A stretch of 64,000 bases of DNA from Dehalococcoidia bacterium. GTDB taxonomy: Bacteria; Chloroflexota; Dehalococcoidia; Lucifugimonadales; Australimonadaceae. This document shows positions 3,187 through 48,187 of the stretch, piece by piece. Each line of letters starts with the position of its first letter. Within the stretch, counting starts at the first letter, position 1. The stretch is from the NCBI GenBank assembly GCA_965206315.1, contig OZ242210.1:1730822-1794821 (forward strand), written 5' to 3'. Under the pieces are notes generated by a model. It searched no databases and was not told the origin of the DNA. It was given only the letters and a program-made list of their open reading frames with translations. Both the position numbers and the translations under genes were made by a program.

Positions 3187-6153
<2,967 letters not shown>

Positions 6154-41175: not shown

Positions 41176-41218
41176 TTCACCCCCATCCTAACCTTCCCCC
41201 ATCAAGGGGGAAGGGATC
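41176..41218. repeat. REP-like type 2 hairpin
   Basis: TTCACCCCCATCCTAACCTTCCCCCATCAAGGGGGAAGGGATC; overlaps the holB stop codon. Confidence 0.85.
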
Positions 41219-42236
41219 AGCCACTCGATTCCACCTTCGTTGCGCGTGCTTCCAGTAGCGGCGCTTCCAGCATGAAGACGTCCAGCGCGAGCCGGACGTT
41301 GGCGTTGCGCTCCAGCGCCTCGATGGTGCGGGTCACGTTCTGCGCCCACCGGACGACGTCCGCTGGCTGGAGAGCAGCGGCCTGCCGCTCCAGCACCTCC
41401 CGCCAGGAGAGGTTGGTGATGCTCGCCCCGTGCCCCTGCTGGATGAGCATGATGTCCCGCAGCCACCGCAGCCAGAGGAAGAGCTCCTCCCGGCCCGCGC
41501 CGCGATCGCGGTCGATGCGCCGGGCGAGTTCGCCCGCATAGGTGAACCGCTCCTCCAGTCCCCCGTCGATGGCGTCCACGATCTGCTCCATCCGCTGATG
41601 CACCGACGCGTAGAGCGTGTCGTCTCCCGTCGCGGCGATGGCCCAGCCGATGCAGCCGCGCGAGAGACGGGCGAGCACCTGCGCCTGCTCCTCGCTCACA
41701 CTATGCTCCTCCTGCAGGACGTGCGCGACCTCATCCACCGGCAGGGGGCGGAAGTAGAGCGTCTGGCAGCGGGAGCGGACGGTCGGCAGCTGGTTGTCCG
41801 CGCTGGTTCCCACGAGGATGAGCACCACGTCGTCAGGCGGCTCCTCCAGCACCTTGAGCAGGGCGTTGGCGGCGTCGCGGGTGAGAGAGTCGGCCTCGGT
41901 GATGATGAACACGCGGGTGCGTCCTTCGTAGGGGCGCAGGTGGGCGGAGTTGATGATGTCGCGTACCGCGTCGATGCCGATGGACGCCGCGTTCTCGCCG
42001 AGGTCGATGAGGCGCACGTCGGCGTGATTGCCCTCGGCGATGCGGACGCAACTCGGGCAGACGCCGCACGGAGGCGCGTCCGCGTCGCAGTTGAGGGCCT
42101 GTGCGAACTGGACGGCGAGGGTTGCCTTCCCCAGGTGCGCGGGGCCGGTGAAGAGGTAGGCGTGGTGGATGCGGCCCTCCGCCAGTGAGCGCTTCAGGGT
42201 CTGGACCGGAAGTTGCTGGCCGTGCAGACGCAGCAT
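41217..42236 (-). CDS. holB: DNA polymerase III subunit delta-prime
   Basis: RIHHAYLFTGPAHLGKATLAVQFAQALNC, Cys cluster CGVCPSC and VFIITEADSLT. Confidence 0.88.
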   Translation of the reverse strand: MLRLHGQQLPVQTLKRSLAEGRIHHAYLFTGPAHLGKATLAVQFAQALNCDADAPPCGVCPSCVRIAEGNHADVRLIDLGENAASIGIDAVRDIINSAHLRPYEGRTRVFIITEADSLTRDAANALLKVLEEPPDDVVLILVGTSADNQLPTVRSRCQTLYFRPLPVDEVAHVLQEEHSVSEEQAQVLARLSRGCIGWAIAATGDDTLYASVHQRMEQIVDAIDGGLEERFTYAGELARRIDRDRGAGREELFLWLRWLRDIMLIQQGHGASITNLSWREVLERQAAALQPADVVRWAQNVTRTIEALERNANVRLALDVFMLEAPLLEARATKVESSG

Positions 42237-42239
42237 GGG

Positions 42240-43556
42240 TCAGACGACGTCCTGCGCGATGAGGTCCTCGTAGGACTCGCGGCGTCGCATGAGGGTCGCC
42301 GCGCCCTCCGACGCCATGACGATGGCGGGGCGGCCGTTCATGTTGTAGACGCTGGCCATGGACGGGGCATACGCGCCGGACGCGGGGATGGCGATGATGT
42401 CGTTCGCGTGCACCGGAGCGAGGGACGCGTCGTGGATGAGTACGTCGCCGGACTCGCAGTACTTCCCGGCGATGGTGACGGTCTCGGTGGCAGCGTCGTT
42501 GGCCCGGTTGGCGAGGGTGGCGATGTAGCGCGAGCCGTAGAGCGCGGGTCGGATGTTGTCGCCCATGCCGCCGTCCACGGAGACGTAGGTGCGGACGCCC
42601 GGCACTTCCTTGATGGCGCCGACGGTGTAGACGGCGACCCCGGCAGGGCCGGCGAGCGAGCGCCCCGGTTCGATGGTCAGCTCGGGCTGGGGGAGGCCGT
42701 TCGCGGCGCAGCCGTCCGTGAGCGCGCCGACGATGGCCTCGGCGTATTCGTCTATCGAGGGCGGTGCGTCGTCCTCGGTGTAGGCGATGGCGAAGCCGCC
42801 GCCGGGGCTGAAGCGGCGCATCTCCAGGCCGTACTCGCCCATGCGGGCCGCGAACCGCAGCACGCGCTCGATCGCCTCGGTGTACGGCTCGAGTTCGAAG
42901 ATGGGTGAGCCGAGGTGGAAGTGGATGCCCTGCATGTCCAGGTTGGGCGCGGCCATCACCTGCCGGACCGCCTCCTCGGCGTCGCCGGTCTCGATGGGGA
43001 AGCCGAACTTGCTGTCCAGTACACCCGTGGTGGTGAGGCGATGGGTGTGCGGGTCTATGGAGGGCGAGACGCGGATGAGGACGGGTTGCCTGCGTCCGAC
43101 CGCGCCCGCCGCTTCGTCGAGCAGGCGCAGTTCGTGGAAGCTGTCTATCACGAAGGTGCCAACGCCCCAGGCGACTCCTTGTGCGATCTCCTCGGGCGTC
43201 TTGTTGTTGCCGTGGAAGTCCACTGTGGCGAGGTCGACGCCCGCGGCGCGCAGCACGGCAACCTCTCCCCCCGAGACGACGTCGAACCCGAGGCCGAGGC
43301 CTGTGAGGTAGCGCGCGAGTGGGACGTTGATGAACGCCTTGCAGGCGTAGACGACACGGCTTTCGGCGTAGCGGGAGCGGAAGGCGTTCAGGAAGCCCTC
43401 CGCCTGGTTGCGGAGCGTGGCCTCGTCGAACACGTAGAGCGGCGTGCCGAACTCGCGGGCGAGCGACGTGACGTCGCAGCCGCCGATCTCCAGGTTGCCG
43501 TCGTCGTTGACGGCGGTGGTGATGGGGAAGACTTTCGAGTCGAGAGGGACAGACAT
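42240..43556 (-). CDS. lysA: diaminopimelate decarboxylase
   Basis: YACKAF (PLP Lys), HFHLGS, GGGFAI, CESGDVL and GAYAPSMAS. Confidence 0.93.
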   Translation of the reverse strand: MSVPLDSKVFPITTAVNDDGNLEIGGCDVTSLAREFGTPLYVFDEATLRNQAEGFLNAFRSRYAESRVVYACKAFINVPLARYLTGLGLGFDVVSGGEVAVLRAAGVDLATVDFHGNNKTPEEIAQGVAWGVGTFVIDSFHELRLLDEAAGAVGRRQPVLIRVSPSIDPHTHRLTTTGVLDSKFGFPIETGDAEEAVRQVMAAPNLDMQGIHFHLGSPIFELEPYTEAIERVLRFAARMGEYGLEMRRFSPGGGFAIAYTEDDAPPSIDEYAEAIVGALTDGCAANGLPQPELTIEPGRSLAGPAGVAVYTVGAIKEVPGVRTYVSVDGGMGDNIRPALYGSRYIATLANRANDAATETVTIAGKYCESGDVLIHDASLAPVHANDIIAIPASGAYAPSMASVYNMNGRPAIVMASEGAATLMRRRESYEDLIAQDVV

Positions 43557-44730: not shown

Positions 44731-45279
44731 TCAGACGGGGAGCTGGTCGGCGTCCGGGGCGGCAACGACGCCGAACGTGGTGTTGATCGCCGAGATGTAC
44801 TGGTACTGGCCGACGGTGGCAGCGAGCTCGACGAGCCATCGGACGCCCTTGCGGCCCACCAGCGCGTCGAAGAGGTCTTGCTCGACCTTGTTGTTCTGCA
44901 GGAGTTGCCGTACGAACTCGATGATGTCGCGCTCGTCCTCTTCGAGGCCACTGGTGTCCTGCCTGTGCCTGACGGCTTCGATGGCCTCTTCCCGCATGCC
45001 GGCAGCGCGTCCGGCTCTCACGTGCGCGGCCCACTCGTAGGTCGCGTCCTTCTCCCTGGCGACGGCGATGATGGCCAGTTCGCGCTCGACCGGGCTGAGG
45101 GTCGAGCCCAGCCTGACCTGCGCGCCGGCCTCCATGACTTTCCGGGCGAGGCCGGGGCTGTGCATGAGGACGGCGAAAGGCCCTCGCACCCCGTGAAGCG
45201 TTTCGACGATCGCGTCGAACTCAGCGTGCCGGTCTTCGGGGACCTGGGCCTTGTCGGTGATCATCTCGATGCGTGGCAT
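44731..45279 (-). CDS. carboxymuconolactone decarboxylase (AhpD-like) family protein
   Basis: LSPVERELAIIAVAREKDATYEWAAHV pattern; start at MPRIEMI. Confidence 0.7.
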   Translation of the reverse strand: MPRIEMITDKAQVPEDRHAEFDAIVETLHGVRGPFAVLMHSPGLARKVMEAGAQVRLGSTLSPVERELAIIAVAREKDATYEWAAHVRAGRAAGMREEAIEAVRHRQDTSGLEEDERDIIEFVRQLLQNNKVEQDLFDALVGRKGVRWLVELAATVGQYQYISAINTTFGVVAAPDADQLPV

Positions 45280-45360
45280 GACTTCTCCTGGCGGCATCAA
45301 CGCCCGGTCCGCTCGGGAGCATTTTCTCCGGCTATTGTACTGCCCCACACCACGCCACGG

Positions 45361-45517: not shown

Positions 45518-46576
45518 ATGAAGGCAGCGGTGTTGCAGGGCGCCGACCAGGACCTCGTGATCGAGGACTTCGAGTCGCCCGACGTTGGCGACGACGACGT
45601 GCTGATGGAAGTGACGGCGTGCGGCGTCTGCCACACGGACCTGAAGGTGCAGGACGGCTCAATACCGACGTCGTTGCCCGCGGTGCTGGGGCACGAGGTT
45701 TCCGGGGTCGTCGTGGGCGCGGGCAAGAACCAGCGCGAGCACTTCAACGACGGCGACAACGTGACGGTGGGGATGCGCTTCCGCTGCGGACGGTGCGAGT
45801 ACTGCATGACCGGGCTGTCGAACCTCTGCCAGCAGATGCCGCTCGGCTCGCCCTACCGCAGGGCGAGCGGCGAGACCGTGACGCGCTGGAACGTCGGCGG
45901 CTTCACACAGCTGCTGTCGGTGCCGGCGTACATGGTTTTCCACCTGCCGGACGGCGTGGGGCTGGAGGAGTCGTGCATCGTCGGATGCCGGGTGACGACG
46001 GCATACAACGCGGTGAAGAACGGCGCGCACCTCGCTCCCGGGGAGTCGGCGATGGTCATCGGCTGCGGCGGCGTCGGACTGAACATCATCCAGATGCTGC
46101 GGCTGTTCGGGGCGTACCCCATCGTCGCGGTGGACGTGGTCGGCAGCAAGCTGGAGGCGGCGCTCTCCTACGGCGCGACCCACATCGTGAACGCGACCTC
46201 CGACGACCCGGTCGAAGCGACGAAGGAGATCACGAAGGGCGGCGCGCGGAAGACGTTCGAGGCGATCGGCAACCCGGTGACCGCGGACCAGATCGTGCGG
46301 GCGACGCGGCCCACGGGCACGGCCACCATCGTTGGGGCGATGCCTCCGGGCCCCATCACCATCAACGACTCGCGCTTCCCGTTCAAGGAGATCAAGGTGA
46401 CAGGCGTGGCGATGCGCAGGACGAGCGACGTGACGGAGGTGCTCGACCTCGTCTCGCAGGGGCGCATCGAGCTCGGCTCGTTCATCACGAAGCGCTACGG
46501 GTTCGAGCAGATCAACGAAGCCATCGAGGACGTACACCACGGCAACGTGCTGATGGGCATCACGCTCTGGAACTAG
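45518..46576 (+). CDS. zinc-dependent alcohol dehydrogenase (MDR family)
   Basis: VTACGVCHTDLKVQDG, GHEVSGVV, structural Zn Cys cluster CGRCEYC and GCGGVGL. Confidence 0.9.
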   Translation: MKAAVLQGADQDLVIEDFESPDVGDDDVLMEVTACGVCHTDLKVQDGSIPTSLPAVLGHEVSGVVVGAGKNQREHFNDGDNVTVGMRFRCGRCEYCMTGLSNLCQQMPLGSPYRRASGETVTRWNVGGFTQLLSVPAYMVFHLPDGVGLEESCIVGCRVTTAYNAVKNGAHLAPGESAMVIGCGGVGLNIIQMLRLFGAYPIVAVDVVGSKLEAALSYGATHIVNATSDDPVEATKEITKGGARKTFEAIGNPVTADQIVRATRPTGTATIVGAMPPGPITINDSRFPFKEIKVTGVAMRRTSDVTEVLDLVSQGRIELGSFITKRYGFEQINEAIEDVHHGNVLMGITLWN

Positions 46577-46603
46577 GGGCGTGGGCGGCGAAAGGAGGAC
46601 GGC

Positions 46604-47401
46604 ATGACGCAGGCTCTGAGGGCATACGCGATCGGCGCGGCGAAGGGCGTCGAGGAGCACGTCTCCTTCCTGGAGGCGACGCCGAAGCGCATCCGCGCTA
46701 CGTTCGGCGGAGAGACGATCGTCGACACGACGCACGCGGTCATCATGTACGAAACGCGGCATCAGCCCGTGTACTACTTCCCGATGGCCGACGTGCGGAT
46801 GGACCTGCTGGAGGCGACCGATAAGAGCACCTTCTGACCGATCAAGGGAGACGCTCAGTACTGGAGCGTCAAGGTCGGCGACCGGGTGGAGGAGAACGCG
46901 GTCTGGGCATACCAGGAGCCGCTGGAAGGCTGCGTGGACGCCCGGAACTACGTTGCGTTCTTCTGGAACCGGATGGACGGCTGGTTCGAGGAGGAGGAAG
47001 AGGTCTTCATCGGCCCGAAGGACCCGTACACCCGGGTGGACTGCCTGCAGAGCTCGCGCCACGTGCGGGTGGAGCTGAACGGCGTGACGGTCGCGGAGAC
47101 CGACCAGCCGGTGATGCTGCTGGAGACCGGGCTGCCGCACCGCTACTACATCCCCGGCAAGGACGTGCGGAAGGACCTGCTCCGCCCGAGCGAGCGCGTG
47201 CTGGGCTCCACCTACAAGGGGATGGCGAACTACTTCCATGCGGACGTGGGCGGCGAGACGTTCGAGGACGTCGCGTGGACGTACCGCGACCCGACCACGG
47301 AGTCTGCGAAGATCGCGGGGTACGTCTGCTTCCCGCAGGGGAAGGCGGACGTGTACGTGGACGACGAACTGGAGCCGAAGCCGAATACGAGGTGGGACTA
47401 G
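46604..47401 (+). CDS. tandem DUF427 protein interrupted by one in-frame TGA (46835-46837): selenocysteine candidate or pseudogene
   Basis: ORFs 46604..46837 and 46886..47401 are in the same frame with no other stop. The read-through gives ...ATDKSTF[TGA]PIKGDAQYWSV..., and the second domain has STYKGMANYF at the equivalent spot. Confidence 0.55.
46838..46878 (+). promoter_or_regulatory. SECIS-like stem-loop immediately 3-prime of the in-frame TGA
   Basis: Lower stem CCGAUC/GGUCGG (46838-43 with 46873-78, one G-U). Upper perfect 7-bp stem GACGCUC/GAGCGUC (46850-56 with 46864-70). Loop AGUACUG starts 20 nt after the UGA. Confidence 0.45.
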
Positions 47402-47479: not shown

Positions 47480-48187
47480 ATGACGCCGCTGGTGGAAGAA
47501 CGCATCGCCGAGATAGAACGGCTCTGCCGGGAGCACGAAGTTGCCCGGCTGGAGCTGTTCGGCTCCGCTGCATCGGGAGCGTTCCGTCCCGGCGAGAGCG
47601 ACCTCGATTTCCTCGTGAGCTTCGAGCCCCGTCCAAAGGGCAGCCGCCCCGCGCCCTACTTCCGCCTCGTTGCCGCGCTTCAAGAGCTGTTCGGCATGGA
47701 CGTGGACCTAGTGGAGGAGGGGGCTATTCGCAACCCGTACTTCAGGCAGGCGGTTGATGCCGGCCCGAGGACGCCACTCTACGAATCTCCGACCGCGCCG
47801 GAACGCCCGCCGCTCACTGCCCCCCATCCCGCTCCGGAGTGCTCTCCCGTGGAACTACGAACCAAGAAACTGCTCTACGACATCAACCAGGCCGCCGGAA
47901 ACATCATCCGCTTTACGGAGGGCAAGACGCTCGACGACTACCTGGACGACCTGTTTCTCCGCAGCGCGGTGGAGCGGCAGTTCGAGATCATCGGCGAGGC
48001 GGCCACCCGCCTGGGCAGGCAAGACCATGCGACCCTCGAACGCATCACCGGCGACCAGGAGATCATCGGGTTCCGTAACCTCATCGCGCACGAGTACGAC
48101 AGGTTGGAGCATGCCCAGATATGGGAGATCGTCGAGCGGGACATCGCCGTCCTGCACGACGAGACCACAGCTCTTCTCGCCGAGTGA
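47480..48187 (+). CDS. single-polypeptide fusion of MNT-type nucleotidyltransferase (antitoxin-like) and HepT/DUF86 HEPN (toxin-like) domains
   Basis: N-terminus ELFGSAASGAFRPGESDLDFLV (GSx..DxD). Pro-rich linker PTAPERPPLTAPHPAPE. C-terminus GFRNLIAHEYD (Rx4HxY HEPN motif). Confidence 0.75.
   Translation: MTPLVEERIAEIERLCREHEVARLELFGSAASGAFRPGESDLDFLVSFEPRPKGSRPAPYFRLVAALQELFGMDVDLVEEGAIRNPYFRQAVDAGPRTPLYESPTAPERPPLTAPHPAPECSPVELRTKKLLYDINQAAGNIIRFTEGKTLDDYLDDLFLRSAVERQFEIIGEAATRLGRQDHATLERITGDQEIIGFRNLIAHEYDRLEHAQIWEIVERDIAVLHDETTALLAE

Follow-up and report, generated by a model that had tools for sequence, protein, structure and literature searches.

At positions 46604–47401 of the window, as we call the whole 64,000-nucleotide stretch of DNA analysed here, two open reading frames of 77 aa (46604–46837, ATG start) and 171 aa (46886–47401, GTG start) lie in one frame, with a TGA at 46835–46837 as their sole separator. 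This arrangement, from which the original prediction for the locus started, was confirmed in the sequence. Reading through the TGA gives the peptide ...KSTF-[TGA]-PIKGDAQYWSV within a product of 265 residues that has two DUF427 domains (PF04248/NTP_transf_9, E 2e-65; 217 bits against a gathering cutoff of 22.1). The 77-aa ORF alone corresponds to positions 1–48 of the 93-position PF04248 profile, so the TGA cuts the first domain in its middle. NCBI records name the fragments 'DUF427 domain-containing protein'. The signature C-x-(Y/W)-K-G-x-A-x-Y-(Y/W), given for DUF427 when the locus was first described, is correct according to our alignment of homologues, and the second domain does carry the S-T-Y-K-G-M-A-N-Y-F block listed at that time, reading G-S-T-Y-K-G-M-A-N-Y-F. 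The features of the locus are collected in Table 1.

Table 1. Features of the DUF427 locus, in window positions.
Feature	Position	Strand	Remarks
Zn-dependent alcohol dehydrogenase	45518–46576	+	Ends 27 nt upstream; Pfam ADH_N/ADH_zinc_N
Shine-Dalgarno AGGAGG	46593–46598	+	5 nt 5' of ATG 46604; read from sequence
Predicted tandem DUF427 selenoprotein gene	46604–47401	+	265 codons, predicted Sec at codon 78, stop TAG
DUF427 domain 1, with the predicted Sec	46691–46966 (aa 30–121)	+	Pfam PF04248; aligns with PDB 3DJM
Predicted Sec-encoding UGA, codon 78	46835–46837	+	Aligns with conserved Cys of H-C-P-Y-K-G-D-A-S-Y-W
Whole SECIS-like element, including possible lower stem	46838–46878	+	Lower stem 46838–46843 with 46873–46878
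Candidate bSECIS upper hairpin, 8 bp	46850–46870	+	44 distinct sequences, all pairs form
Hairpin, 5-bp part	46850–46854 with 46866–46870	+
Hairpin, 3-bp part	46855–46857 with 46862–46864	+
Apical tetraloop GUAC (consensus GUAY)	46858–46861	+
Hairpin, bulged A	46865	+
DUF427 domain 2, Cys to Ser (G-S-T-Y-K-G)	47063–47335 (aa 154–244)	+	Pfam on C-terminal half

An AlphaFold (AF2) model of the DUF427 protein (pLDDT 84.9) gave a single strong match in Foldseek, the solved DUF427 structure 3DJM (TM 0.91, rmsd 1.2 Å), followed by weak matches to Yippee/Mis18 domains (E 0.06–0.4, TM 0.5–0.7 on the target). Together these matches are in line with the published placement of DUF427 in the beta-tent (Mss4-like) fold alongside MsrB and GFA, with the Zn site absent in DUF427 (PMC4287342). 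A literature search found no functional study of DUF427; apparent matches to the name in papers on the glutamine riboswitch and on Menshen concern DUF4278 and DUF4276.

Conservation of the TGA and selection on both sides of it

A protein search with the product returned full-length homologues of ~270 aa at 50–58% identity as well as '171-aa' proteins at 77–95% identity. In the DNA around three of the '171-aa' relatives we found the same split into 77 and 171 aa with the TGA between them, in gene neighbourhoods that were partly different. Scanning with one genome per species yielded 46 genomic loci, all in Dehalococcoidia/SAR202-type Chloroflexota MAGs (many of them complete chromosomes and several from sponges), each with a single in-frame TGA and with protein identities from 97% down to 54%. 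Adding 26 metagenomic orthologues, in which the residue after the TGA is sometimes A, S or Q instead of P, the column reads TGA in 72 out of 72 orthologues spanning 97% to ~50% protein identity, and TGC, TGT, TAA and TAG do not occur there in any of the 72. One TGA-form (L044, 338–1129 of PBOV01000133.1) comes from a MAG labelled Rhodospirillaceae (Tara Red Sea), and its hairpin region is identical to that of the SAR202 MAG carrying L043; this contig is probably a mis-binned SAR202 contig and not evidence for the family in Alphaproteobacteria.

Homologues without the TGA have Cys at this column, as had been anticipated from the motif: 15 of 17 in a first alignment and 109 of 111, with Ser in the other two, in a larger one. 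The solved structure 3DJM also has Cys at the position of the predicted Sec. In a neighbour-joining tree, all 59 TGA-forms included (59/59) fell into one clade with no Cys-form inside it, and this monophyly is consistent with a single Cys-to-Sec change at the base of the clade.

The prediction had left two readings side by side: DUF427 in a new form that carries Sec, or a TGC-to-TGA nonsense mutation of recent date. Loss of function in the window genome would take no more than one T-G-C to T-G-A change, and annotation pipelines do call two ORFs or a partial protein here, but a pseudogene agrees poorly with a TGA that is fixed in 72 of 72 orthologues over deep divergence (~50% identity), is confined to a monophyletic group and has no close relative with TGC, and it agrees no better with the purifying selection downstream of the codon and the 45 genes free of frameshifts or extra stops described below. 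We therefore regard the recent nonsense mutation as refuted. That the TGA is a sequencing or assembly artefact is hardly conceivable, since dozens of independently produced assemblies, which differ in project and technology and include complete chromosomes, show the same codon.

Elsewhere in the window, TGA is an ordinary stop, closing 23 of the 61 long ORFs, which speaks against a genome-wide reassignment of this codon. Ten further places in the window where ORFs are joined by a TGA turned out to be unremarkable. At 41217–43556 (minus strand), taken up as a possible second split gene, a PLP-dependent decarboxylase (438 aa) ends at the TGA 42240–42242, and after one more codon the gene for DNA polymerase III delta' (339 aa) begins with an ATG in the same frame, making the two ordinary neighbours; in the nine remaining pairs, a gene ends at an ordinary TGA and the sequence beyond it is out of frame. 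Screening TGA-joined ORF pairs, which covers Sec codons away from the protein termini, revealed no second selenoprotein gene in the window.

Selection on the protein was compared along the gene in the window's own clade (17 genes), where pN/pS was 0.26 for codons 1–77, 0.22 for codons 79–94 and 0.11 for codons 95–265, which indicates purifying selection on both sides of the TGA. The 45 distinct orthologous genes compared were free of further stops and of frameshifts. Downstream of the TGA, the next start codon in frame is reached after 17–67 codons, depending on the orthologue, and its position is not conserved; at codon 95, called as the GTG start in the window, many orthologues have GTC, GAG or GTT. 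The codons between the TGA and GTG 46886 encode the most conserved motif of DUF427.

These observations bear on the possibility that the TGA is a true stop and that the locus yields two half-proteins of 77 and ~171 aa, perhaps through termination-reinitiation coupled by the hairpin described below. Gene finders call both ORFs, and in the window a GTG does follow 17 codons after the TGA. However, the restart codon is not kept among relatives, the 16 codons that would go untranslated hold the most conserved motif at a pN/pS of 0.22, and the split would sever a DUF427 domain after 48 of its 93 profile positions. Reading the sequence upstream of GTG 46886, we saw no Shine-Dalgarno sequence comparable to the AGGAGG that precedes the ATG. 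Moreover, an ordinary stop would be expected to change between the three stop codons over time, as happens at the end of these genes (TAG 37, TAA 6, TGA 2 in 45 genes). Given the selection, the intact frames, the absence of a conserved restart and the motif that spans the gap, a true stop with a separate downstream protein is very unlikely.

In tandem Cys-forms, each of the two domains has the motif Cys. In the second domain, the residue equivalent to the predicted Sec is Ser in the crown TGA-forms (in the window Ser202, TCC, 47207–47209), and Cys (TGT/TGC) is kept in the Cys-forms and in the basal TGA-forms (the loci concerned being L042, L045, L047, L167, L179, L183, L186 and L187). This distribution suggests that the domain-2 Cys was lost after Sec had been gained in domain 1.

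A conserved hairpin downstream of the TGA

The RNA immediately after the TGA had been predicted to form a lower stem (CCGAUC/GGUCGG) and an upper stem (GACGCUC/GAGCGUC) closed by the loop AGUACUG. These elements exist in the sequence, but comparison with relatives shifted the register of the upper part. Over 44 distinct 60-nt segments, the structure as first proposed, with a 7-bp stem and a 7-nt loop in its upper part, has 93% of cells (base pairs across sequences) paired, against 30–46% in controls with the 3' partners slid along, and one upper-stem pair is a C.A mismatch in 17 of the 44. RNAfold of the variants suggested instead a register in which an A is bulged and the loop is a GUAY tetraloop; here 100% of cells are paired over the 44 distinct sequences, and slid controls gave 25–40%. 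The upper hairpin in this register begins 12 nt after the UGA and has an MFE of −10.3 kcal/mol.

Five of its eight pairs vary and yet stay paired, and the covariation amounts to one doubly changed pair and four wobble-compatible ones (U.G/C-G and A-U/G.U alternations). The doubly changed pair provides the compensatory change that the prediction had proposed looking for among TGA orthologues: C-G becomes U-A in 5 sequences, and the 3' change, which costs a Val-to-Ile substitution, never occurs without its partner. The lower stem is a possible part of the element that is less well supported than the upper hairpin, with 91.7% of cells paired, one pair unpaired in 14 of 44 sequences and another doubly changed (CG 31, UA 4).

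All eight consensus pairs can form in 72 of 72 TGA-forms, so the hairpin is conserved wherever the TGA is, as opposed to 0 of 47 versions of the motif with a Cys or Ser codon, in which 2–7 pairs are possible. Distant homologues, the second domain of the TGA-forms and the three closest orthologues of the Cys-form made up these 47 controls. Synonymous diversity in the codon alignment, ~0.35 gene-wide, falls to a minimum of 0.13 at codons 81–90, and single codons near the hairpin are nearly fixed (Ser88 AGC 45/45, Gly82 GGA 44/45, Val89 GTC 43/45), although the nucleotide conservation of this region partly reflects the conserved peptide motif. Where the Sec-form peptide departs from that of the Cys-forms (Tyr to Ile, Ser to Gln/Arg), the codons concerned lie in the hairpin, and it therefore appears that the RNA structure shapes the peptide.

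The bSECIS model of Zhang and Gladyshev, in the excerpt quoted in PMC13188914, asks for a loop of 3–9 nt, an upper stem of 4–16 bp, a G at loop position 1 or 2 with, as a rule, G or U after it, a spacing of 16–37 nt from the UGA and an MFE of at most −7.5 kcal/mol. The hairpin fits all the constraints in this excerpt, with a loop of 4 nt that starts G-U, a stem of 8 bp with one bulge, a spacing of 20 nt and −10.3 kcal/mol; the register first proposed also fits them as quoted (a loop of 7 nt with G as its second nucleotide, 19 nt from the UGA). Compared with shuffled sequences, the free energy of the hairpin is ordinary for a sequence of 66% GC (z −0.47 and −0.95). Given that the folding energy is unexceptional, the case for the element rests on the comparison with relatives. 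Rfam gave no match at gathering thresholds in the window, and around the site only a chance lncRNA match (E 9.5); the hairpin thus has no corresponding model in that database.

The prototype of bacterial selenoprotein genes is E. coli fdhF, whose SECIS has a GGUC-type loop and a bulged U on the 5' side. The DUF427 genes resemble such genes in their short hairpin within ~12 nt of the UGA, the small apical loop starting with G-U, the single bulged stem nucleotide and the distance of 20 nt between UGA and loop, inside the 16–37 nt range. They differ from fdhF in the protein family, in the loop (GUAY instead of GGUC-type) and in the bulge, which here is an A on the 3' side instead of a U on the 5' side.

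Selenocysteine machinery in the host genomes

All hosts of the TGA-form are MAGs. A search of the genome for selA, selB, selD and tRNA-Sec had been proposed as a check on the prediction, and with E. coli SelB (from NC_000913) as probe we found full-length SelB in at least eight host genomes of TGA-form orthologues, covering all four clades A–D. Four were identified directly at a locus (L056, L057, L232, L261; hosts include OZ251500.1, OY282355.1, OZ252245.1 and MAG S32_235) and four indirectly, through SelB proteins on contigs of exactly matching length (P0130, P0134, P0250 and P0351, for OZ252088.1, OZ241740.1, OZ253466.1 and OZ241751.1). The SelB of OZ251500.1 has TIGR00475 as its best family and aligns with E. 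coli residues 2–605, and a TGA-form (L030) lies on the same chromosome. For clade A, to which the window belongs, MAG S32_235 has both a TGA-form (L013, DAOUJA010000079.1) and SelB (L232, DAOUJA010000042.1), a link that relies on correct binning. Two weaker links point the same way for this clade: one contig of 567,408 bp bears both a CMD neighbour of the clade-A type and a SelB from the same cluster, and MXY59158.1 (the MBL neighbour) and MXY60388.1 (a SelB fragment) are adjacent in one accession block.

The other components did not appear in the regions covered: selA, selD and tRNA-Sec were absent from the ~20-kb loci around selB or DUF427 of the hosts, a tRNA scan of the window and 53 DUF427 loci found no tRNA-Sec, and the window itself has no tRNA and no tblastn match to E. 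coli SelA, SelB or SelD. In other Dehalococcoidia, selA, selD and tRNA-Sec adjoin selB. The top ten of bacterial selenoproteomes by size in BSepDB includes two from Dehalococcoidia MAGs, with 49 and 46 genes (PMC13326102).

Several candidates were set aside in this search: the GTPase match at L024 is BipA/TypA-like by its sequence and not a SelB, and the SelB candidates P0208, P0210 and P0235 belong to other MAGs. The SelB cluster P0222 has many members of 198 aa beside those of 620 aa, some on megabase contigs; in part of the assemblies, the short ones may stem from a selB gene that was called truncated or in pieces. On OZ251500.1 (L051, 3001–6713), a tandem-DUF427 paralogue without the domain-1 Cys/Sec motif lies ~1.4 kb from selB on the opposite strand, with a transposase-like ORF (3890–4900) between the two.

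The hosts' SelB also bears on whether the UGA could be read through without Sec, by a near-cognate tRNA inserting Trp, Cys, Gly or Arg, with the hairpin as stimulator. In some systems, read-through of a stop codon can be promoted by a hairpin 3' of it, and the inserted residue is not readable from sequence data. Against this stand the Cys found at the column in 109 of 111 homologues, which is the classic Sec/Cys signature, the fit of the hairpin to the SelB-type SECIS model as excerpted, including the G-U loop start, and the intact SelB that the hosts keep, a protein whose only known role is Sec delivery. The lineage is, in addition, a documented heavy user of Sec (PMC13326102). On balance, read-through with a residue other than Sec seems unlikely.

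A probable new selenoprotein family and its possible function

We consider it highly probable (roughly 0.9) that the gene at 46604–47401 encodes a selenoprotein in which UGA codon 78 is decoded as Sec, the first of the two readings offered by the original prediction; the conserved TGA, the Cys homologues, the covarying hairpin specific to TGA-forms and the SelB of the hosts all favour it. Of the three findings that had been named as refuting it (a complete genome without the Sec machinery, orthologues without Cys at the column, close relatives with TGC and no conserved hairpin), none turned up as far as the comparison reached. Sec insertion, SelB binding and a redox role are deduced from sequence comparison, and the sequence of events would be as follows. 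The upper hairpin in its bulged register, 12 nt downstream of the UGA, would act as a bacterial SECIS, to which SelB carrying Sec-tRNA(Sec) would bind, delivering Sec to a ribosome paused at the UGA. Sec would thereby take the place of Cys in the signature motif C-P-Y-K-G-D-A-S-Y-W, a change that would have occurred once, at the base of the SAR202-type Dehalococcoidia clade, and been kept since.

PF04248/DUF427 is absent from a 2026 review table of 119 prokaryotic selenoprotein families and subfamilies. No NCBIfam model matches the DUF427 selenoprotein, which is thus not an NCBIfam-defined selenoprotein family, and full-text literature searches returned only irrelevant papers for DUF427 with selenoprotein and none for COG2343. 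Given these three absences, we regard it as a new selenoprotein family that uses a known bacterial mechanism. As with known bacterial selenoproteins, Cys homologues exist and the hosts have SelB. The DUF523 domain protein and other families recently predicted by deep-Sep (PMC12013277), as well as Haft's NCBIfam selenoproteins, are similar cases in combining a Sec/Cys pair, TGA orthologues, a SECIS-like hairpin and a DUF domain, and with 72 orthologues the DUF427 selenoprotein has deeper support than several listed families. The Cys-containing DUF427 proteins (3DJM from Rhodobacter sphaeroides; tandem forms in Rubrobacter, other Actinomycetota and Chloroflexota) share the domain; the tandem ones have the same architecture and signature motif as the Sec-form, and 3DJM has the same fold. 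In contrast to the Sec-forms, of which the crown members would combine a Sec in the first domain with a Ser in the second, they carry TGC/TGT and lack the hairpin.

Such a family would add to the inventory one that the 119-family table (2026) and NCBIfam, and hence PGAP annotation, have missed, and it would explain two-fragment or partial annotations in hundreds of Dehalococcoidia/SAR202 assemblies, many of them from marine sponges and the deep ocean. A SECIS inside a conserved peptide motif would also restrict which codons are used and which residues are possible (Ser to Gln/Arg, Val to Ile).

Where Sec stands in for a Cys, that Cys is nearly always a catalytic redox residue. By this usual logic of Sec/Cys pairs, the Sec/Cys position is probably the catalytic residue of DUF427, most likely redox-active, which marks one Cys position of the family as a probable active site and as the residue to mutate. 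A further selenoprotein with a catalytic Sec is MsrB1 (SelR). MsrB has been assigned to the beta-tent fold together with DUF427 (PMC4287342). The two have no detectable sequence similarity, however, DUF427 is without the Zn site, and MsrB1 uses a eukaryotic 3'-UTR SECIS.

The most conserved neighbour of the DUF427 gene is a Zn-dependent alcohol dehydrogenase, which lies just upstream in the same orientation. It was seen at 22 of the 45 loci compared, in members of clades A, C and D, mostly with a gap of 26–89 nt, and is a probable operon partner. This conserved neighbour suggests a pathway. By NCBIfam, it is generic class-III-like, so the dehydrogenase gives only a weak functional lead; the JGI label 'S-(hydroxymethyl)glutathione dehydrogenase' is unspecific, every NCBIfam match being far below its cutoff. 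We tentatively propose that DUF427 proteins are unrecognised thiol/selenol redox or nucleophile enzymes with the motif Cys as catalytic residue, which would work with the co-transcribed Zn alcohol/aldehyde dehydrogenase and in which the domain-2 Cys would have become dispensable after Sec was acquired; this proposal is more doubtful than it is probable. By analogy, the pairing may be comparable to that of the beta-tent protein GFA with the dehydrogenase to which it supplies a thiol-aldehyde adduct. Between clades, the upstream dehydrogenases (window; L004–L039) are 84–100% identical, as against 68–97% for the DUF427 selenoprotein.

AhpD-like proteins are a known selenoprotein family. Two genes upstream of the DUF427 gene, the window has a CMD/AhpD-like, peroxidase-related protein (44731–45348, minus strand; TIGR01926-like) with no in-frame TGA. 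Downstream, at 47480–48187 (plus strand), a 235-aa ORF joins an NTP_transf_2 domain (MNT-type, aa 13–90) to a HepT-like RNase (aa 135–229), a fused version of the normally two-gene MNT/HepT toxin-antitoxin pair, and six related loci have a similar ORF (~240 aa) downstream of their own DUF427 gene.
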